Source: a virus. From it: a stretch of DNA of 19,774 bases. Of the stretch, positions 1-18,819 are shown piece after piece. The stretch lies in UHGV virus genome UHGV-0311028; one strand, written 5' to 3'. The notes below the pieces were generated by a model. It searched no databases. It saw only the letters and a list, made by a program, of their open reading frames with translations, and was not told the origin of the DNA. How positions within the stretch are numbered: the stretch's first letter is position 1; the number at the start of each line of letters is the position of its first letter. The position numbers and the translations under genes are program-made.

Positions 1-260
1 ATGCTGTGGCATTGCAGCAGATTAAAGAGCGTGGCGCTTTACCGATGATTGATCGCGGTGATATTCGTCAGGCTATTGATCGTTGCAGCAATATTTGGGC
101 TTCATTGCCCGGTGCTGGCTACGGTCAGTATGAACACAAGATCGATAGTCTGATTGCCAAATTCAAAGAAGCTGGCGGGAGAGAAGTCTTTCAGGCCAAG
201 CTGCTTGCGGTAGGCATCCCACCAACGGGAAAGAAGCTGGTAGCGTCCGGCGGCTGTTGA
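1..260 (+). pseudogene. Endolysin 3' fragment (lambda R-type lytic transglycosylase, approx. codons 91-150), truncated; runs off the window start
   Basis: Plus-strand frame reads ...AVALQQIKERGALPMIDRGDIRQAIDRCSNIWASLPGAGYGQYEHKIDSLIAKFKEAGG up to nt 179, which I recognise from memory as the C-terminal half of lambda R-family endolysin. After nt 179 the frame runs into the reverse complement of the opposing fragment and stops at 260. The first in-window codon at 6-8 is GTG (Val of DAVALQQ), so the gene continues upstream of the window. Confidence 0.7.
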
Positions 261-440
261 TTTGAGTTTGGGGTTTAGCGTGACAAGTTTGCGAGGGTGA
301 TCGGAGTAATCAGTGAAGAGTTCACCACCGACAATAATATCATAACCGTGGTTACGTGTCGGTTGTCGCCCGTTATCCGTTCCTTCTGACCATGCCACCA
401 TATCGAGGAAAGCTTTACGCTGAGGATTAAGATTTTGCAT
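102..440 (-). pseudogene. Endolysin 5' fragment (lambda R-type), codons 1-88 intact (nt 440->177), then out-of-frame read-through to a stop at 102
   Basis: Translation MQNLNPQRKAFLDMVAWSEGTDNGRQPTRNHGYDIIVGGELFTDYSDHPRKLVTLNPKLKSTAAGRYQLLSRWWDAYRKQLGLKDFSP matches the N-terminal 88 residues of lambda R from memory. Similarity ends at nt 177, where the expected KSQDAVALQQ continuation is replaced by ASFFEFGNQ..., the reverse complement of the other fragment. The ATG at 440-438 overlaps the holin stop. Confidence 0.7.
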
Positions 441-732
441 TTTTCACCCCTGTCAGTCGTTCCCAGAAGTACGTCAGTGCAACCGAACCCATCGCACCAC
501 TAATCCCCGCTGTCGCGAGAATCATGTAAATACTGAATCCACTTTCGATGCTGATCAGGCCACCAATAACACCGGTGAATCCTGATACCACTATCTGAGC
601 CAGAGCATTTATCCAACTCCACGTTGCTTTACTCTGCTTCACATCTATCAGGTAGCGGACCAGACCGCCCCAACCTGCGATGATCAGCAAAACGAGCCAG
701 AATGCTCCAGCAAGATTCTCTTTTTCGTGCAT
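427..732 (-). CDS. Putative class I holin (three predicted TM segments); start uncertain (ORF extends to 831)
   Basis: About 100 aa with three hydrophobic stretches (AFWLVLLIIAGWGGLV, WINALAQIVVSGFTGVIGGLI, FSIYMILATAGISGAMGSVALTYFW) and a short charged C-terminus. Sits immediately upstream of and overlapping the endolysin start, downstream of Q. The first ATG at 831 has no SD and directly abuts a terminator hairpin, so the internal ATG at 732-730 (MHEKEN...) is preferred. Confidence 0.55.
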   Translation of the reverse strand: MHEKENLAGAFWLVLLIIAGWGGLVRYLIDVKQSKATWSWINALAQIVVSGFTGVIGGLISIESGFSIYMILATAGISGAMGSVALTYFWERLTGVKNAKS

Positions 733-843
733 ATGAATAGCCGCAGTTTCGCCTCCGACAGAAAATCGGAGCGTGAAATGATATGTTGATTTATTATTAA
801 TTCGAAAATTACATTCTAATTCATCAGGCATTGATGATTTTAT

Positions 844-878
844 AATAATAAAGGCCGTTCGTTACGGCCTTTATTATT
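844..878. terminator. Perfect 15-bp inverted repeat hairpin (AATAATAAAGGCCGT / ACGGCCTTTATTATT, 5-nt loop), bidirectional terminator-like
   Basis: Read directly from the sequence at 844-858 and 864-878. A GC-rich core is flanked by A/T runs on both sides. Lies between the Q-proximal moron and the holin. Confidence 0.55.
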
Positions 879-883
879 GATAT

Positions 884-1219
884 TTATTTTACATCCCAAG
901 GTAGTTCCTCAAGAGAGAAGACTAATTCATTATCAATGATTTCGTATTCTGCATAACCTTCAACCTCTCCTGAGAAGTTATTGTCAACGCATCCTTCATA
1001 ATAGCTATATGGTGCTATAAAGTGAAACCCATATTCATCTATCTCTGTGATTTCAAAATTGTAGTAATCGTAAGAATATCGAATATCATCATCAGAAATA
1101 GAACTAAGTACATAGTTATTAAATTTATCGGAATGCTTAACGATAAGCTCTGACAACGCGTCAAGATTCTCTGGAGAGATATTTCCTAACGGTAATCTGT
1201 ACTCAACGGCATTAATCAT
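884..1219 (-). CDS. Hypothetical acidic protein (moron between Q/late promoter and holin)
   Basis: 111-codon ORF with a strong SD (AAAAAGGAGGTTGT before the ATG). AT-rich relative to neighbours. The product is rich in D/E and aromatic residues (SYDYYNFEITEIDEYGFHFIAPYSYYEG) with no family I recognise. Bracketed by terminator hairpins at 1271-1296 and 844-878. Confidence 0.6.
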   Translation of the reverse strand: MINAVEYRLPLGNISPENLDALSELIVKHSDKFNNYVLSSISDDDIRYSYDYYNFEITEIDEYGFHFIAPYSYYEGCVDNNFSGEVEGYAEYEIIDNELVFSLEELPWDVK

Positions 1220-1270
1220 ACAACCTCCTTTTTAACTGATATGAGGTTATATAATGTGTTTCAGTACAAG

Positions 1271-1296
1271 TAAATAAAAACCCGCTCAACAGCGGG
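1271..1296 (-). terminator. Rho-independent terminator (tR'-like) downstream of the putative late promoter
   Basis: Minus-strand hairpin CCCGCT-GTTG-AGCGGG followed by TTTTTATTTA (plus strand 1271-1296: taaataaaaacccgctcaacagcggg). Confidence 0.6.
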
Positions 1297-1344
1297 TTCG
1301 TGAAAATTATCAACGGCAGACATACAAAGCCCATCGTTGAGAAA

Positions 1345-1373
1345 ATCTTATCCATATTTTTTGAAAAATGCAA
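1345..1373 (-). promoter_or_regulatory. Candidate late promoter (pR'-like) just downstream of Q
   Basis: On the minus strand: TTGCAT, a 17-bp spacer, then TAAGAT. Located between the Q stop (1405) and the tR'-like terminator, which is the lambdoid pR'-qut-tR' arrangement. Assigned by motif and position only. Confidence 0.35.
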
Positions 1374-1404: not shown

Positions 1405-2157
1405 TTATCTCGTCACCTTTCTCAATTGCGTTTCAGCATATGCTTCTTCCTGCCAGCACTTTGTTACTAGTTTATCAATTACGTCTGCATATCCTTTGTA
1501 CCACTGATAATCAGTCAGGTCTGGAACCAGCTTCTGGACATGACGTCGTGCCAGTGTAGTTGGTAAACGGCTAAACCGGTTTCCATTGCAACGCCCACAA
1601 ATCTTATAAACAGGCGTGCCATGAAGCCGGGTCCTTTTTTCATCCAGGACAATACCTTTACCCTTACACCCTCTGCACGCTGTGCTGACTTCTCCCTTAC
1701 CATGACAATGCTGACATAGTTCCTTCACCCACTCTTCCTTGATAACAGATTCCCCGCTTCTGGAGTGTTTCACCACCTCGCGCAATACATTATGAAATCC
1801 AGTACCAGCACAATGCTCACAGCGAGCCTTACTTGCCGCAGACCTGGAATAATCAGCAAAGGCAAAATTCACAAGGTAAGGAATGATCTGTAGCCGGGTT
1901 TCTTCACTCAATTTATTCAATGTCGGGTTATCCAGTGCCATCGCGTAATTGAGCAGACCTTCAATCGCAAACTGAGGATCCTGAACACCAACTTTTGCCA
2001 GGAATAAGGCAAACCCAAGCGGTGCTTTCGACTGCACCATCCCCTGCGCAGCCATCACATCCGTAATCGTTAAACCACCAGAGCCTGTCGCCGGTGCGTC
2101 ATCGCTCAGTTTTGGAGATTTCGGGGAGTAATATTTCGGTAAGGCTTCAAGGTTCAT
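1405..2157 (-). CDS. Late-gene antiterminator Q (Qin/quuQ-like family)
   Basis: 250-aa product with Cys-rich zinc-binding motifs (CEHCAGTG, CQHCHGKGE, CRGCKGKG, CGRCNG). N-terminus MNLEALPKYYSPKSPKLSDDAPATG... matches the Q-like antiterminators of E. coli lambdoid prophages as I recall them. Sits directly upstream of the late promoter/terminator and lysis genes. SD GGAGAA precedes the ATG. Confidence 0.8.
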   Translation of the reverse strand: MNLEALPKYYSPKSPKLSDDAPATGSGGLTITDVMAAQGMVQSKAPLGFALFLAKVGVQDPQFAIEGLLNYAMALDNPTLNKLSEETRLQIIPYLVNFAFADYSRSAASKARCEHCAGTGFHNVLREVVKHSRSGESVIKEEWVKELCQHCHGKGEVSTACRGCKGKGIVLDEKRTRLHGTPVYKICGRCNGNRFSRLPTTLARRHVQKLVPDLTDYQWYKGYADVIDKLVTKCWQEEAYAETQLRKVTR

Positions 2158-11393: not shown

Positions 11394-11743
11394 TGGAACC
11401 ATACAGCCTCACGCTAGATGAGGCCTGTCATTTTCTCAAGATATCCAGACCGACTGCCATTAACTGGATACGCACAGGGCGTCTGCAGGCAACACGCAAA
11501 GATCCCACTAAGAATAAATCTCCTTACCTCACAACACGACAAGCCTGCATTGCGGCGCTTCAGTCTCCGCTGCATACTGTCCAGGTGAGCGCGGGTGATG
11601 GCATAACAGAGGAAAGAAAATGTCACTCTTCCGCAGAGGTGAAATATGGTACGCCAGTTTCACATTGCCGAACGGTAAAAGATTTAAACAGTCTCTTGGA
11701 ACAAAGGACAAAAGGCAGGCGACAGAACTCCATGACAAGCTAA
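11393..11743 (+). CDS. xis: Excisionase (Xis, HTH_17/AlpA-like); 3' end overlaps int and may be shorter than the ORF
   Basis: [37 protein letters not shown] is a typical excisionase/AlpA-type HTH. ATG at 11393 with SD AGAGGTGA and TAATG coupling. Directly upstream of int. Confidence 0.6.
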
Positions 11744-12783
11744 AGGCTGAAGCATGGCGGGTCAGCAAACTTGGTGAAATTCCTGATATAACGTTCGAGG
11801 AAGCGTGTGTCAGGTGGCTTGAAGAGAAAGCACATAAAAAATCACTGGACGATGACAAAAGCCGGATCGGATTCTGGCTTCAACATTTCGCAGGAATGCA
11901 ACTAAGAGACATTACTGAATCAAAAATTTATTCAGCAATGCAGAAAATGACGAACCGGCGTCATGAGGAAAACTGGAAACTCAGGGCAGAAGCATGCAGA
12001 AAAAAAGGGAAACCTGTTCCAGAATACACGCCAAAACCAGCGTCCGTTGCAACGAAGGCTACGCATCTTTCATTTATAAAGGCCCTGCTAAGAGCCGCAG
12101 AGCGTGAATGGAAAATGCTGGATAAGGCACCAATTATTAAAGTGCCTCAACCAAAGAATAAACGGATCCGCTGGCTGGAGCCTCATGAAGCACAAAGGCT
12201 GATTGATGAATGTCCGGAGCCATTAAAGTCTGTTGTTGAATTTGCACTTGCAACAGGCTTAAGACGCTCGAACATCATCAACCTTGAATGGCAACAAATA
12301 GACATGCAGCGCCGGGTGGCATGGATAAACCCGGAAGAGAGTAAATCAAACCGCGCAATTGGCGTTGCGCTGAATGATACTGCATGTCGCGTATTGAAAA
12401 AACAAATCGGGAATCATCACCGTTGGGTATTTGTGTATAAGGAAAGCTGTACCAAACCAGACGGAACGAAAGCGCCAACAGTCAGGAAGATGCGGTATGA
12501 CGCAAACACAGCCTGGAAAGCGGCGCTGAGACGAGCAGGTATTGATGATTTCAGATTTCACGACTTGAGACACACCTGGGCAAGTTGGCTGGTTCAAGCC
12601 GGAGTCCCGTTATCAGTGTTACAGGAAATGGGAGGCTGGGAGTCTATCGAAATGGTTCGTCGATATGCTCACCTCGCACCTAATCACCTTACCGAACACG
12701 CACGGCAAATAGACTCGATTCTGAACCCATCGGTCCCAAATTTGTCCCAGTCAAGAAATAAGGAAGGTACTAATGATGTGTAA
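11620..12783 (+). CDS. int: Tyrosine integrase, P22 Int / DLP12 IntD family
   Basis: 387 aa. N-terminus [34 protein letters not shown] and C-terminal catalytic region [39 protein letters not shown] (R...H-x-x-R...Y) match P22-type integrases from memory. SD AGAGGAAAG. Ends 15 bp from the tRNA-derived att core. Confidence 0.9.
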
Positions 12784-13233: not shown

Positions 13234-16200
13234 TTATCTCGTAAAATTAGTTTTATGACTTCCTGTTAGCTGACTGTCTTCATAATAAAATGCCCCACTA
13301 AACTCCTGTCGACCATAATGATGACTTGATGTGAGTGAGCCCCCTATAACATCTTTTTCACCTAATAATGTCCAAACGATTTCAAAACCATTTTCCCTTA
13401 ACATTGTTAAAAATGGTTCTTTTTTAACAAGTAGATACGGCTTTGAAGCATATACAGCTTCAGCTGCAAAGCAAACCATAGTTCCATTTTCATCATTGAA
13501 GCTACCCTCTACTTCCCCATTTTTTAAGCCCATCTTTTCAAAGATTAAGTTGCTAGGCTTCAAAAAATTCAAAGCTTCTATTTTTGATTTGTCGAACTCC
13601 TCTCCCCACAAATAATTAATCGAAGTGACACTAACATCAGCTATCTTAGCTCCAGACTCCCGGTCTGTTACCGAAGTCCAGTCAGAACCAGCATAATAAT
13701 CTGATTTAAAAGACTTAAATGCTTCGGACCAATAGTACTCCCTATTAAATAATTGGTATCTATCAGTACCTTCCGGCATCCACCTGCCCATAAAGTCTTG
13801 AGCTATTGCCCAACATCTAAAATTTTCAAATTCTTCAACTTTAACGATATAACTTCTGATCTGATACCAAACCTCTTTTCGTGGGTGCCCCCAATCATCG
13901 TTTCCAATAATTTTTGGTTCTTTCCATGATGGATAACTTTCTAATACTATCCATTCATCACCATTATCATCTTTAACTTCAATCAAAGCATATGGATTAG
14001 TTATAGTAGTAGAGCTTTGAACCCAGTCTTCATTAGAGCAAGTCCAATCAAACACTTCATCATTAAACCACCACATTTCTTTATTGCTTATTTTTTTCGT
14101 CCCAGTTTCTTTAAGTAAGATAGTGGGATCTATATCTCTTACGTAAGGCTCCCATGGCCCTTGGTATGGGTTTTCCTTTCGGTCGTCACCATAACCTTCA
14201 AAATGAATAAAATTATCGGCTAGCCTTGCCATGTATTCATAATAAGCAATCCATTGGTATTTTTTACCAATCCGTTCTTGGAATTCCTCTCTACGTCCAC
14301 GTCCAGTTCCTATTTGTTGGTCAAAATCACCATGCTTCTCCGGATCCCAACCAAGATCCAGAACACGATTGAATATAAATTGTTGAGCTAGTCGAAGATC
14401 AAAGTGTTTATCAGTTTCCAGCAGATTATTATTATGATCTAGGTATGGCTCTATTTCATTTTCAAACTCACTTAACAGATCGTATGACAATGAATTCTTA
14501 AATAGCTTCTTGCTCGCCTTTATTTCTTCCTGTGTTTTTCTACCGACCACGCTACCCAATTTAATACCTTCACATTTATCATCATAAATGAAAGGATCTG
14601 TGGCATCATATAAATCTTTTTGTTGATCAGTTAGTTTACATTTGAAAGTTTTAAAAACTCGCTTACGGTCAACAGGGGTTTCATTAAACTTGCAACCAGA
14701 CCAATCAGAATGATTATAATTTGTTCCAATAGTATATCGTGAAAAGTCACCACCTTCCATAATCGAGCTCCAGAGTTCCCGATAAGGTTCTTTATCATAA
14801 AGGGACTCTAGTTCCTCTTTTGAAGGAATCTTGTCAGGCCAAATGCTGTTGTAGGGTGGTCTAGTCTTGGATAATTCAATGCTTTCAAGTTCCAATCCAA
14901 GATGATTAGCAAATTCAATAATCTCTCTAGCATAATCTCTAAGTAATATATTTGGATACACATACTCAGAACAAAATACCTTTTGGTAAACAGTTTCGGC
15001 TAAATATTTTAGTTCTTTAATATTATCAGTTCGCAATGTACAACCCAATGCAACTGCAAATATTCTTTCCCAAACGTAAGGATCATTTACACCATAAAAC
15101 TTATCAATTATTTTTCTCAATACAGGAATTCTTGGCTCGAGTAAACTCACTAAAGCCTTGGTTGAGCAATCTCGAAGTTCTCGGTTACTAGAAGTTAAAA
15201 ACCAGCATAAACTAGTTGCAACTAGCTCGATTGACTCATCCGAAACGAAGCTTTTATCTGTTCTGCCCCATGCCCAATCGATTAGATGCCTAAATGCTGA
15301 GTCTTCACTATATTTATATTTAAGTTTTGTAGTCCAACACGAATCTCGATTTCCCAAAGAGTAATCTTTTAGCCAATCATGCAAAAAATTAGCATTAAAG
15401 GGATGGTCAACTAAACCTGAAATAGAGATCACTGCCTCGAGAAAATGATCAAAACTACCTTTAAATTTAAAAACATGTTCATTGATGAAAGGTCTGATTT
15501 TTTCGAAATCAATAGCCTTAATATCTCGCCATATCAAGCTATCAATAAAGGCTTCTAGTAATTTATGATTATTGCTGAACTCCGGCAGAAATTCATAAAG
15601 CTCTTTTCCATACTTTTCTGGCAATTGAATAGAAAGCGCCTCAACTATTCCCGAGTTTGTATAAAAATCACATTCATCATGAAAATATTTTTTCAGACAA
15701 CCATCTGACTTAAATTCATTTTCGATATTTTCAACATCATTTAATAAAAAATTAACAGTTAAATGATCATCAAACCTTTCAAAAGCCACATGAACTACTT
15801 CCTCAGTAGCATTATCATTATTTCTCACTATGCCTTTAGTCAATAATCCTTCGTCAATCAAGGCGCTGAGGAAATTTTTATCTGTAACATAATCATTAAC
15901 TACAGATTGAACCACTGAGTGAGCATCTCTAAGTGAAATACTATTACTACCAATCTCTAATTTGAATTTTATGATTTCGTTGAGAGCATCTTTTACAAGA
16001 GGAAAACTGGGATCGAAATCATATTTTCTTGGCGATGCCAATGATTTATTCACCCCTTCCACTAAAAAGTTAAAAATATTTGAAATCCCATTAAACCCAA
16101 CAGGTACTTTGGTTAAACCATTTTTCTTAATGCCTTCACACAATAACTTAAGAAATAGAGGGTTTTTAAACTCTGGATTAAGATTCGGTGATGAAGGCCT

Positions 16201-17688
16201 CTCTATATTGTAATAATCATAAAATAGACTAACCGCTTCTAACTCAACATTCTGAAATCCAATATGTTCATGAATTTCAAAATTATTTCGCTCAACATTC
16301 TCATGTGAAATTGTTACATTTCTATATGTTGTTCTGACTGACATTATCAGACCAAGCCATTCAAAGCATCTGATTTCATCGACAAAACTGTTAATATTGT
16401 CATTCCAGAATTTATTTCCATTACCTTCATTAATAGCATCAATGAAAACCAAGACTCTTTTTCCTGTTTTTTTGCCATATAAATTCAGTTTTTCCAGGAA
16501 TTCACGAGAAGTGATTTTAAGCTGTAATCTCTTGAAGATCTGTGACCATGGAGATTCATCTGAAGTAAGTTGTTGCCCTAGTATGAGTAGAGAAGGATAT
16601 CCAGAAGCAATTCGATTTTTAATCACATCAGCCAGTAAATGAGACTTACCAATTCCAGCTTTTCCTTCGAGAAGTAAGAATGGGTTGTTAGCCAACTTTA
16701 CTGTTGTTGAATTAATGAATGTACGTAATTCATTGCACGCATAGTCAAGTTCCCGAAGCATTCGCAGAGTAGATGAATACTTATCACTGTAATGCTTGGT
16801 TTCACCTACTTGTTCTGACTTTTCTCGGAGTTCCCACAATATTGATTCCGCTCCGCCAATAGCTGTCTGGCAGCTGTCAACATAGTTATTAAATTTATTT
16901 ATAGGAATTTGATCTAATTTAGAAAAATTAAGCCCTTGATATATATCCGCAATTTGATTTAAGGACTCGTCTATTACAGATAATTCTGAGTAAATTACAT
17001 CGCAACTATGTAACCTCTTTCTAGTCATCAGAAAATTATCTATATGTGAGTAAAATATTTTAGCAAAATCATCAGTTCTACCGAGACCATCAAATATCTC
17101 TGCTATTTCTAGCTTTACGTTGAGTTCGGGTGTGTATCGGCCTCCCAAGTCAGCTATTGCTTGACTATTTTTTTCATTTAACCAATCATCACTCAAGTGA
17201 AAAGTTAGTTTCTCATCTATAGACCGCAAAATAAGTTTAACTTGAATAAGCTCTTCATTAATATCGAATATTTTTTCTTTATACGTTTCTTCGATATGTA
17301 GCTTTTTTAACTTCGAACAATTATTGATTTTTAACGATAACATCTCATAAAAAAGGCTGAGTTGTTGTTGAGTTGGGGGGGTGATGCTTGGATATTCTTT
17401 GAACTTGTCTAATAATATCCCTTTGTCAGGAAACTCTTTAAACAAGATGTGTTCATTCAACATCTCAAACAATGGTTCAGAATGATAAAATGGAATTGCT
17501 CCACTTTCTACTGGATATGTTTCTTCAAACTCAATTGCCGTCTCTTCAATTAGTTGATATAATCTATCCACATATCTTTTTTGGGGGAATAATGCTTTCT
17601 TAATACAACCATATCCTTCTTGAGAGATGAATTGATCAATAAGTTTAGTTGCTACATAAGTTGCCACTGTAATTGATATAAGTTCCAT
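13234..17688 (-). CDS. Large P-loop NTPase with NACHT/STAND-like motifs (1484 aa); candidate antiphage defence protein; N- and C-terminal domains unassigned
   Basis: Uninterrupted 4455-nt ORF. ATG at 17688-17686 with upstream GGAAGAAG. Walker A GKAGIGKS (aa 342-349, nt 16642-16665), Walker B-like VLVFIDAINE (aa 412-421) and a sensor-1-like LIMSVRTT (aa 447-454). Strongly AT-rich relative to int and pin. Plus-strand ORFs inside it are short shadows. Confidence 0.85.
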   Translation of the reverse strand: MELISITVATYVATKLIDQFISQEGYGCIKKALFPQKRYVDRLYQLIEETAIEFEETYPVESGAIPFYHSEPLFEMLNEHILFKEFPDKGILLDKFKEYPSITPPTQQQLSLFYEMLSLKINNCSKLKKLHIEETYKEKIFDINEELIQVKLILRSIDEKLTFHLSDDWLNEKNSQAIADLGGRYTPELNVKLEIAEIFDGLGRTDDFAKIFYSHIDNFLMTRKRLHSCDVIYSELSVIDESLNQIADIYQGLNFSKLDQIPINKFNNYVDSCQTAIGGAESILWELREKSEQVGETKHYSDKYSSTLRMLRELDYACNELRTFINSTTVKLANNPFLLLEGKAGIGKSHLLADVIKNRIASGYPSLLILGQQLTSDESPWSQIFKRLQLKITSREFLEKLNLYGKKTGKRVLVFIDAINEGNGNKFWNDNINSFVDEIRCFEWLGLIMSVRTTYRNVTISHENVERNNFEIHEHIGFQNVELEAVSLFYDYYNIERPSSPNLNPEFKNPLFLKLLCEGIKKNGLTKVPVGFNGISNIFNFLVEGVNKSLASPRKYDFDPSFPLVKDALNEIIKFKLEIGSNSISLRDAHSVVQSVVNDYVTDKNFLSALIDEGLLTKGIVRNNDNATEEVVHVAFERFDDHLTVNFLLNDVENIENEFKSDGCLKKYFHDECDFYTNSGIVEALSIQLPEKYGKELYEFLPEFSNNHKLLEAFIDSLIWRDIKAIDFEKIRPFINEHVFKFKGSFDHFLEAVISISGLVDHPFNANFLHDWLKDYSLGNRDSCWTTKLKYKYSEDSAFRHLIDWAWGRTDKSFVSDESIELVATSLCWFLTSSNRELRDCSTKALVSLLEPRIPVLRKIIDKFYGVNDPYVWERIFAVALGCTLRTDNIKELKYLAETVYQKVFCSEYVYPNILLRDYAREIIEFANHLGLELESIELSKTRPPYNSIWPDKIPSKEELESLYDKEPYRELWSSIMEGGDFSRYTIGTNYNHSDWSGCKFNETPVDRKRVFKTFKCKLTDQQKDLYDATDPFIYDDKCEGIKLGSVVGRKTQEEIKASKKLFKNSLSYDLLSEFENEIEPYLDHNNNLLETDKHFDLRLAQQFIFNRVLDLGWDPEKHGDFDQQIGTGRGRREEFQERIGKKYQWIAYYEYMARLADNFIHFEGYGDDRKENPYQGPWEPYVRDIDPTILLKETGTKKISNKEMWWFNDEVFDWTCSNEDWVQSSTTITNPYALIEVKDDNGDEWIVLESYPSWKEPKIIGNDDWGHPRKEVWYQIRSYIVKVEEFENFRCWAIAQDFMGRWMPEGTDRYQLFNREYYWSEAFKSFKSDYYAGSDWTSVTDRESGAKIADVSVTSINYLWGEEFDKSKIEALNFLKPSNLIFEKMGLKNGEVEGSFNDENGTMVCFAAEAVYASKPYLLVKKEPFLTMLRENGFEIVWTLLGEKDVIGGSLTSSHHYGRQEFSGAFYYEDSQLTGSHKTNFTR

Positions 17689-18210: not shown

Positions 18211-18765
18211 TCATTTATCTCCGACCGGAAACTTCTTATACAGTGTCGATATACCAACATCATAGATGATCGCCACCTTCTGGCGAGGAACGCCTGATGC
18301 AATTAATCGCCCGGCCTGCGCCCATTGTTCTGGTGTAAGTTTGGGACGACGTCCACCAATTCGTCCCTGTGCGCGAGCAGCTTCCAGTCCAGCTTTTGTT
18401 CGTTCAACAATCAGTTCTCGTTCCATTTCAGCCAAGGCCCCCATCACATGAAAGAAAAAACGCCCCATTGGTGTGCTGGTATCAATTGAATCCGTCAGAC
18501 TACGAAAGTTGATGCCTCGTTCGCGCAACTCCTCCACCAACACGACAAGATGCCGCATACTACGCCCCAGCCGATCCAGCTTCCAGACAACCAGAGTGTC
18601 ACCTGCCGATAATGTCCTGAGCAGTTTTTTCAGTCCCGGCCTTTCGGACTTTGTGCCGCTTATCTTGTCTTCAAAAATCAGCTCGCATCCTGCACAGTTC
18701 AGCGCATTACGTTGTAGATCTGTGTTCTGGTCATTTGTTGATACGCGTACATAGCCAATAAGCAT
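18211..18765 (-). CDS. pin: Serine DNA invertase, Pin/Gin/Hin/Cin family
   Basis: MLIGYVRVSTNDQNTDLQRNALN...DRLGRS... carries the resolvase/invertase catalytic serine motif (YVRVST) and a C-terminal HTH, and matches Pin of e14 from memory. SD GGGGGA before the ATG at 18765-18763. The ORF-track start at 18801 adds 12 unlikely residues. Confidence 0.9.
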   Translation of the reverse strand: MLIGYVRVSTNDQNTDLQRNALNCAGCELIFEDKISGTKSERPGLKKLLRTLSAGDTLVVWKLDRLGRSMRHLVVLVEELRERGINFRSLTDSIDTSTPMGRFFFHVMGALAEMERELIVERTKAGLEAARAQGRIGGRRPKLTPEQWAQAGRLIASGVPRQKVAIIYDVGISTLYKKFPVGDK

Positions 18766-18819
18766 GGTAGATCCCCCTGACAAAAGCAGGAATGATGCCA
18801 TTTGCTCGTTATTTCTGCA

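Follow-up and report, generated by a model that had tools for sequence, protein, structure and literature searches.

A moron-like cassette behind the late terminator of lambdoid prophages, with a predicted leader stem over its ribosome-binding site

In lambdoid prophages, the interval between the late antiterminator gene Q and the lysis genes carries Shiga toxin (Stx) and other conversion genes, and cargo found there is usually presumed to be switched on by Q. We analyzed this slot in UHGV virus genome UHGV-0311028, a stretch of 19,774 nucleotides (hereafter, the window), whose minus strand carries in order Q, an intergenic leader, an open reading frame (ORF) of 111 codons, a hairpin, a LydA-type holin gene, and the 5' part of a lysozyme gene. 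The 111-codon ORF, here called the cargo gene, is part of a compact cassette, and in the leader of this cassette we found a predicted hairpin that covers both the Shine-Dalgarno sequence (SD) and the start codon of the gene and that recurs in related prophages. The picture that emerges is of a self-contained moron, which would have its own promoter and be insulated from Q read-through; as a whole we consider this picture evenly poised between right and wrong, and the insulation step, when judged by itself from the sequences, falls short of an even chance. The features of the cassette are as follows.

884..1219, minus strand: cargo gene, ATG start, encoding an acidic cytoplasmic protein of 111 aa (WP_000606308.1 / UniProt J7QCH0; PHROG 13663)
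1215..1255, minus strand: hairpin of the 5' untranslated region, with the 5' arm at 1255-1243, a 15-nt loop at 1242-1228, and the 3' arm at 1227-1215
1246..1274, minus strand: putative promoter-like element (TTTACT 1274-1269, 17-nt spacer, TATAAC 1251-1246), with a predicted start at about 1240
843..879, minus strand: cassette terminator, a perfect 16-bp hairpin with a 5-nt loop, a GC core, and A/U-rich extensions
765..1275, minus strand: cassette-specific DNA of about 510 bp, lying between homology to moron-less phages on both sides

Leader stem, promoter-like element and terminator

The SD of the cargo gene (AAGGAGGT at 1223-1230, minus strand) stands 3 nt ahead of the ATG. The 3' arm of the leader hairpin covers the AUG (1219-1217) and the GAGGT (1227-1223) of this SD (1230-1223), and the 5' arm holds the -10-like hexamer TATAAC; across the family, this arm contains or directly follows a -10-like hexamer. 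The hairpin of the window has 13 bp, a folding energy of -13.7 kcal/mol and a z-score of -4.24, and none of 200 shuffled sequences was as stable, while the leader stems of relatives reach -14 to -18 kcal/mol. Among 20 distinct versions of the gene whose surrounding DNA we compared, 19 had a leader in which the SD was paired. With the leaders anchored at the AUG, positions -8 to -3 were paired in the minimum free energy (MFE) structure of nearly all of them, and the pair types found were UA, AU, CG, and GC at position -7; AU, UA, and CG at -4; AU, UA, GU, and CG at -3; and AU, GC, UA, and CG at -1. The leader stems contain many G-U pairs, which fit folding of the sense strand only, since they would be mismatches in the complementary strand and in a DNA palindrome.

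The controls were other genes annotated in the same loci. The mean probability that the SD is paired was 0.80 in the family leaders versus 0.54 in 116 such genes (Mann-Whitney p 2e-6). A measure that uses neither alignment nor energy, the longest uninterrupted complement to positions -12..+3, reached 9-14 nt in 8 of the 20 leaders (11 nt in the window), compared with a complement of at least 9 nt in 6 of the 116 controls (p 1.5e-4). When the RNA was cut at the predicted start of the cassette's own transcript, the probability of SD pairing fell from 0.84 to 0.57, a value like that of ordinary genes. Folds of the longer stretch from -100 to +30 retained the leader stem, and no Rfam family reached its threshold on the leader hairpin.

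The promoter-like element overlaps the T-tract of the tR'-like terminator that precedes it, and a terminator stem with a T-tract is found directly upstream of the gene in almost all loci. Relatives in Salmonella, Citrobacter, and IMG/VR have TTTACA and TATAAC separated by 17 nt, with the hexamers kept and the spacer freely diverged; other subgroups have an A-tract followed by TTGACA, TTGGCA, or CTGACA, a 15-nt spacer, and TAnnnT. The module stays with the gene also in loci where the gene is away from Q (L014, L019, L042, and L045). In two pattern scans of IMG/VR, the motif behind a T-tract and with a suitably placed ORF occurred, among the matches listed, solely at family members. We had also considered a generic slot promoter common to other cargo, and this was not seen, the motif standing in the right setting, among the matches listed, only before members of the family. 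We read the element as a putative weak sigma-70-like promoter belonging to the cassette itself.

At the downstream end of the cassette, the hairpin at 843-879 folds at -20.2 kcal/mol (z-score -7.9) and looks bidirectional. Most related loci have a canonical terminator with a GC stem and T-tract after the stop codon at the same place, its sequence differing between subgroups. The preliminary description of this DNA had bracketed the gene with two terminator hairpins, namely, a perfect 15-bp hairpin at 844-878 and a tR'-like terminator at 1271-1296. Both hairpins were found, and the downstream one is indeed perfect; it measures 16 pairs and spans 843-879, and the upstream stem lies a few bases away, at 1278-1299. 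As a separate observation, a sub-threshold Rfam match to IS102 RNA (window 726-890, minus strand; 26 bits against a gathering threshold of 46; E 0.036) covers the cassette terminator and the stretch before the holin.

The cassette in its slot and the family of the cargo gene

The slot in which the cassette resides is bounded by the following features.

1405..2157, minus strand: late antiterminator Q gene, 250 aa (Pfam PF03589 Antiterm, 3.8e-54), the upstream border of the slot
1345..1373, minus strand: candidate late promoter pR' (TTGCAT 1373-1368, 17-nt spacer, TAAGAT 1350-1345), proposed from sequence
1268..1299, minus strand: tR'-like intrinsic terminator with a 9-pair stem (GAACCCGC..GCGGGTT, 1299-1278) and a T-tract (1277-1268), forming the left junction of the cassette
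427..732, minus strand: LydA-type holin gene, the first lysis gene (PF16083, 1.5e-21; PHROG 785), the downstream border of the slot

The preliminary description had placed the gene in a Q-to-holin slot, and the Pfam families of both borders bear this out. Q is matched also by PHROG 127 (Q-like) at 4.7e-109 and is labeled 'antitermination protein' by RefSeq in the identical ECONIH4 locus; the RefSeq locus belongs to an SfV/e14-like prophage whose tail is contractile and whose head is of the HK97 type. The holin frame is open as far as 831 (427-831), and RefSeq starts the identical holin of 101 aa at the ATG equivalent to 732. The candidate pR' agrees with the consensus at 7 of 12 positions, and for this reason the promoter scan was silent on it; its block is kept in SfV, upstream of the annotated terminator of that phage. 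The SfV record carries a 'putative rho-independent terminator' at the tR'-like site, where in the window the 9-pair stem (1299-1278, minus strand) is followed in the terminator scan by TTATTTACTT. The leader including tR' folds at -25.9 kcal/mol (z-score -4.6), and the scan gave three terminator-like sites versus 0.3 expected from shuffled sequences.

The window is homologous to SfV and about 29 other phages through Q, pR', and tR', and this homology ends just past tR' at about 1276. At the holin end, a match to the holin region of PhiR47_2 sets in at about 764, and therefore about 510 bp are specific to the cassette. Base composition also sets the region apart: the tract from about 700 to 1400 is low in GC, the cargo ORF has 34% GC (30% at third codon positions) versus 47% for Q, 45% for the holin gene, and 55% for the DUF968 gene, and cassettes of relatives have 35-40% versus 45-51% in their surroundings. 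The definition of a moron reportedly derives from the work of Hendrix, Juhala, and co-workers on HK97 and HK022. The cassette has the traits of patchy presence with sharp junctions, a downstream terminator of its own at the sequence level, and deviant base composition, and the best reading of the sequences is a classical moron, that is, foreign AT-rich DNA inserted right after tR' of an SfV/e14-like lambdoid prophage. In the genome paper of SfIV, the Q-to-lysis interval was described as a moron site (PMC3851460). The slot of SfV holds two other genes (orf47 and orf48) that end in their own terminator, with cargo including a DNA methyltransferase type as in L014 and L020.

A related arrangement was noticed in some Citrobacter and Salmonella prophages (L014, L015, and L020), where the family gene lies between an ORF of 63 aa and an N6/N4 DNA methyltransferase gene; these two have the sizes and order of orf47 and orf48 of SfV (L058), which gives the impression that the cassette was inserted between the two. 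In strain CX04, the whole cassette-bearing phage is present not only in the chromosome but also as a circular 'plasmid' of 37,667 bp (NZ_CP081716.1, L182), and this 37.7-kb circular record suggests that the prophage still excises spontaneously.

The protein encoded by the cargo gene has a mass of 13.0 kDa and a pI of 4.05, with 24 D/E versus 5 K/R residues, and 19 of its residues are aromatic, 12 of them Tyr. Its N-terminus (MINAVEYRLPLGN) is without a hydrophobic stretch, and we therefore assign no signal peptide by inspection. RefSeq names WP_000606308.1 'hypothetical protein', and the only named match is PHROG 13663, a family of unknown function whose profile aligns positions 1-111 with residues 1-111 of the protein (E 9.4e-54). 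This unannotated PHROG is thus matched over the full length, and a wider family at 25-45% identity extends beyond it. The only Pfam match was a sub-threshold one to NIR_SIR_ferr (15 bits against a cut-off of 24); NCBIfam gave no match, no PADLOC family, whose models cover defence systems only, was matched even at E up to 10, and phmmer and profile searches of the PDB gave nothing below E 0.2. When 25 family members were compared with Pfam, merely scattered single matches appeared. In the AlphaFold2 (AF2) model, with a pLDDT of 83.7, the protein appears as a soluble, generic alpha+beta roll whose fold does not point to a function; we set it beside the known NTF2-like, cystatin-like, and VirB8-like rolls, and fold comparisons including viral structures gave no informative match. 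A literature search for WP_000606308, phrog_13663, and J7QCH0 found no paper. The earlier characterization of the ORF as AT-rich and acidic, with a strong SD, with no signal peptide and of no recognized family, agrees with all of these results, and a search for what the preliminary description had named as counter-evidence, a known structural or regulatory phage protein among its homologues, found none. The suggestion in that description of an immunity or anti-defence type of protein is speculative, neither PADLOC nor the fold comparisons having given a match that would favor it.

Comparison with the Salmonella homologue gave pN 0.17 and pS 0.79 (saturated), and dN/dS was 0.10-0.28 in closer family pairs; because of this purifying selection across the family, the cargo ORF is, as judged from its substitutions, a real gene rather than a chance ORF. 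The identical protein is encoded on at least 1000 contigs, including those of Shigella. The whole 641-bp query from the end of Q through the cassette is present in 131 of 5426 complete E. coli genomes (about 2.4%), out of 1026 E. coli genomes with any match to it; the other roughly 900 have a part such as the Q end, pR', or tR'. A word-indexed search of 5.8 billion proteins found relatives solely in E. coli, Salmonella (72% identity), and Citrobacter (69%). A profile search, with 27 matches among the 5.8 billion, added Enterobacter, Erwinia, Duffyella, and more of Salmonella and Citrobacter, all unnamed. When 1.84 billion representatives were searched exhaustively with an HMM, 26 proteins were found, almost all 106-118 aa long; at 50% identity the family amounts to about 26 clusters. 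A related-locus search with the narrow family alignment gave just one GTDB species representative, and a tblastn search of the cargo protein against 50,697 GenBank phage records found no homologue. The family is small, uncharacterized, and confined to prophages of Enterobacterales. Its nearly invariant residues are F33, Y48, C77 (within a G-C-x-D motif), and the C-terminal L-D-E-x-x-W, and among homologues of 25-72% identity in six genera, with unrelated flanks, the length, motifs, and cassette architecture are kept.

The position of the gene is also conserved. Members nearly always lie directly after Q and tR' and ahead of the holin gene, and in all prophage loci examined the gene is on the late strand between an upstream Q and a downstream holin gene. 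The Q preceding it may be of the PF03589, DUF1133/PF06530 (192 aa), or PF06530 (121 aa) type, the holin of the PF16083, PF16931+PF05449, or PF16080 type, and the endolysin nearby a GH24/104 enzyme, a GH19-like enzyme, or a T4-type lysozyme. Other cargo lies between Q and the family gene in L014, L019, L020, L042, and L045, and a methyltransferase gene lies between the family gene and the holin gene in L014 and L020. In Erwinia tracheiphila the gene is found in a decayed prophage. One member (L022, 4001-4333) is outside any recognizable prophage, flanked by sbcB (exonuclease I) and a glycosyltransferase-like gene, and it has neither the promoter-like motif nor the SD-sequestering stem. As a side observation, nine separate stretches of a protein of 2661 aa (P0019) match residues 68-102 of the family profile (E 7.7e-10), which is probably a resemblance of Tyr-rich beta-hairpin repeats and not homology.

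Expression of the cargo gene and competing explanations

From the gene order, no late transcript can arrive at the lysis and structural genes without passing through the cassette and both terminators, and the cargo gene is therefore transcribed late, under Q. Q-modified polymerase would read through both terminators, and in the resulting long RNA the 5' arm of the leader stem would pair with the SD and AUG and hold translation down. A transcript from the promoter of the cassette itself would begin within the loop (at about 1240 in the window) or within the 5' arm, and since such an RNA lacks all or part of that arm, its strong SD would be free. The promoter of the cassette would then account for most of the expression, which would be low and probably take place in the lysogen, and the gene would be insulated from late transcription. 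The stem in read-through RNA and the recurrent pairing of the SD, together with the promoter-like element and terminator of the cassette, point to promoter-proximal, probably lysogenic, expression. From general knowledge of small, soluble, strongly acidic proteins, the product most plausibly acts by binding another macromolecule, and it may serve as an inhibitor or immunity-type accessory factor that binds another protein.

Known systems offer partial parallels. As in lambdoid morons, extra DNA separates two genes that related phages have side by side or with another filling between them; it has a promoter-like element at one end, a terminator at the other, and a low GC content. As in the slot of SfV, the cargo is bounded by a terminator. 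The cassette differs from known morons in its uncharacterized cargo family and in the conserved leader that would sequester the SD and AUG, and to our knowledge no such leader has been described for morons, although no literature search was aimed at this point. A closer likeness is found in IS10, where the ribosome-binding site pairs with sequence upstream of the transcript's own start, so that only transcripts from outside form the stem and are poorly translated. This fold-back inhibition in IS10/Tn10, which shields transposase from external promoters, is said to have been described by Davis, Simons, and Kleckner in 1985 (Cell 43:379), a paper that PMC13181058 cites. In the cassette, as in IS10, the stem is predicted to sequester the ribosome-binding site, and the 5' arm would be lost or truncated with a start 7 nt after the -10-like hexamer, a start that is itself predicted. 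Unlike IS10, the cassette sits in a phage late operon and not in an insertion sequence, its translational effect is predicted, and no antisense RNA partner is evident. With Stx and other late cargo past pR' and tR' it shares the slot, the orientation, and the necessity of being transcribed by Q-modified polymerase; unlike Stx, the protein is without a signal peptide or toxin homology (searches for these Stx-type traits found a non-hydrophobic N-terminus and no Pfam domain), and the terminator and leader stem of the cassette argue against bulk late expression.

Several points weigh against insulation by the leader stem. The subgroup with a 6-bp stem is not individually significant (z-score about -1), and its complement of 6 nt is common in the controls. 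The leaders of the family are related to one another, so that the p-values overstate independence, and the table of pair types was anchored on MFE structures, which favors pairing. A plain MAFFT alignment of the leaders yielded no consensus structure in RNAalifold, which we ascribe to loops of different length that put the arms out of register. In the group with TTTTCACCT/AGGTGAAAA, an RNA begun at the predicted start would retain some of the stem, and in any leader a strong SD beside an A-rich loop of 15 nt might still recruit ribosomes. As for the promoter, both variants are poor: the -10-like TATAAC of the window is without the conserved final T, and the good TTGACA of the other groups has a 15-bp spacer. 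The consensus scan called neither variant; its silence on the element of the window is explained by that missing T.

The strongest alternative, which we nevertheless regard as rather improbable, is that the cargo protein is a Q-dependent late protein, produced abundantly upon induction from the first cistron of the late operon and active in lytic growth, for example, as an anti-defence or host-takeover factor. The gene is co-directional with the late operon and stands directly after tR' in nearly every prophage locus, behind three families of Q; it has a strong SD; the same slot holds cargo of the DNA methyltransferase type in SfV and in L014 and L020; and a small, acidic, soluble protein is typical of phage inhibitors. 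This alternative would hold if the stem were opened in vivo or merely tuned expression, which is possible. It is opposed by the predicted sequestration of both SD and AUG in read-through RNA, by the dedicated terminator and promoter-like module that accompany the gene, and by the finding that neither PADLOC, within its scope of defence systems, nor viral structures gave a match. The earlier proposal that the gene is expressed under Q, like Stx, accordingly stands as far as transcription is concerned, since the late transcript must cross the gene; as to translation, the predicted locking of SD and AUG and the promoter-like element and terminator of the cassette speak against it.

Another explanation accepts the leader stem but gives it a role other than insulation, namely, as an RNA thermometer, an mRNA-stabilizing 5' hairpin, a repressor operator acting as DNA, or a stem opened by translation of a leader ORF; we consider it improbable. 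Like fourU and ROSE thermometers, the stem covers the SD and is rich in A/U, with G-U pairs, but the prediction has it closed throughout the range of 20 to 60 C, and neither a thermometer nor any other Rfam family was matched, so that we rejected the thermometer. Its arms form an inverted repeat overlapping the -10-like hexamer, as an operator might; against this, the G-U pairs correspond to A-C mismatches on the other strand and in a DNA palindrome. In the window, translational coupling would be allowed by a frame of 53 codons (1212..1373, minus strand) that begins in the pR' region, spans tR' and the leader stem, and ends 5 nt past the cargo AUG. Relatives do not keep this frame: it has 7 codons in L007, is absent from L056, and is without an ATG in most loci. 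We therefore rejected the coupling also.

A role in lysis timing, with the protein as a cytoplasmic antiholin-type or holin-modulating factor, appears quite unlikely. The gene is always just upstream of the holin gene in intact prophage loci, the holin of the window is of the LydA type (PF16083), and LydA of phage P1 has a soluble antagonist, LydB. Nevertheless, the gene is accompanied by at least three unrelated holin families and three endolysin types, a methyltransferase gene intervenes before the holin gene in L014 and L020, a terminator separates the cargo gene from the holin gene, the member in L022 lies outside any prophage, and related phages such as SfV lyse without the cargo gene. 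Least probable of all is a vestigial cassette that hitch-hikes by linkage to the Q and lysis modules and whose hairpin and promoter-like motifs are by-products: the protein is without known function, within E. coli the cassette is always accompanied by the same Q and holin modules, and the prophage of the window is itself rearranged, yet purifying selection with saturated synonymous sites, an architecture, length, and motifs kept in six genera amid unrelated flanks, and an identical protein on so many contigs speak against it.

Neighbouring genes and significance of the cassette

The rearrangement of the window prophage concerns the lysozyme gene. Its 3' part (residues about 92-150, ...AVALQQIKERG...KFKEAGG; window 1-177, plus strand) is inverted against its 5' part (102-440, minus strand), and it follows that the endolysin is broken and the late operon cut off at a junction near 178. 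No complete E. coli genome spans this junction, homology starting at 178, and it reflects either an inversion mediated by the prophage or an artefact of assembly.

Defence genes and a colicin-domain gene were noticed in the window and in related prophages. An ORF of 1484 aa (13234-17688, minus strand) encodes a full-length AVAST type 2 protein, Avs2 (PADLOC and NCBIfam NF041813, E = 0; no Pfam match); it lies just beyond the prophage integrase gene (11620-12783), is present in 88 complete E. coli genomes, and adjoins a gene for a Pin/resolvase-type DNA invertase (18211-18801, minus strand). In EF7-18-58, Avs2 is found in a different context, where the same avs2-pinE pair lies by a decayed prophage at a different chromosomal position. 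We considered a link between Avs2 and the cassette, with the cargo protein as a possible late anti-Avs factor, and found it unsupported since, among the matches listed, none of 40 Avs2 records was among the 30 cassette records. Citrobacter prophages with the 69% homologue (L007-L011; 2181-3275, in L011 749-1843, minus strand) encode a protein of 364 aa with the pore-forming colicin domain PF01024, on the opposite strand and upstream of RusA, and another family-bearing prophage (L023, 1-1449, plus strand) encodes a NACHT/NB-ARC (Avs-like) protein just upstream of the nin region. A functional pairing of the family gene with the divergent neighbours of 289 aa (L014) and 293 aa (L016) was rejected, these two proteins being unrelated.

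Morons and the cargo slot between Q and lysis genes are already known. What would be new is the conserved unit of terminator, promoter, stem, gene, and terminator, with its putative insulation, and a protein family that is unannotated. We tentatively propose, while regarding it as a possibility on the doubtful side, a 'translationally insulated' moron, in which a cis-acting RNA stem would separate promoter-proximal RNA, which is translated, from Q-read-through RNA, which is silent, so that a protein beneficial to the lysogen is kept out of the lytic programme; the proteins would form a new prophage-borne inhibitor or immunity family specific to the first position of the late operon in lambdoid prophages of Enterobacterales. 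If the promoter and insulation do not operate, the cassette would be merely one more hypothetical moron. If they do, position in the late operon would not by itself predict expression, even for a family that keeps this position in six genera, and a simple RNA device would serve to separate lysogenic from lytic expression. Any phenotype found for the cargo protein, such as exclusion, toxin immunity, or anti-defence, would annotate thousands of genes, including those in Shigella, Salmonella, Citrobacter, and Enterobacter.

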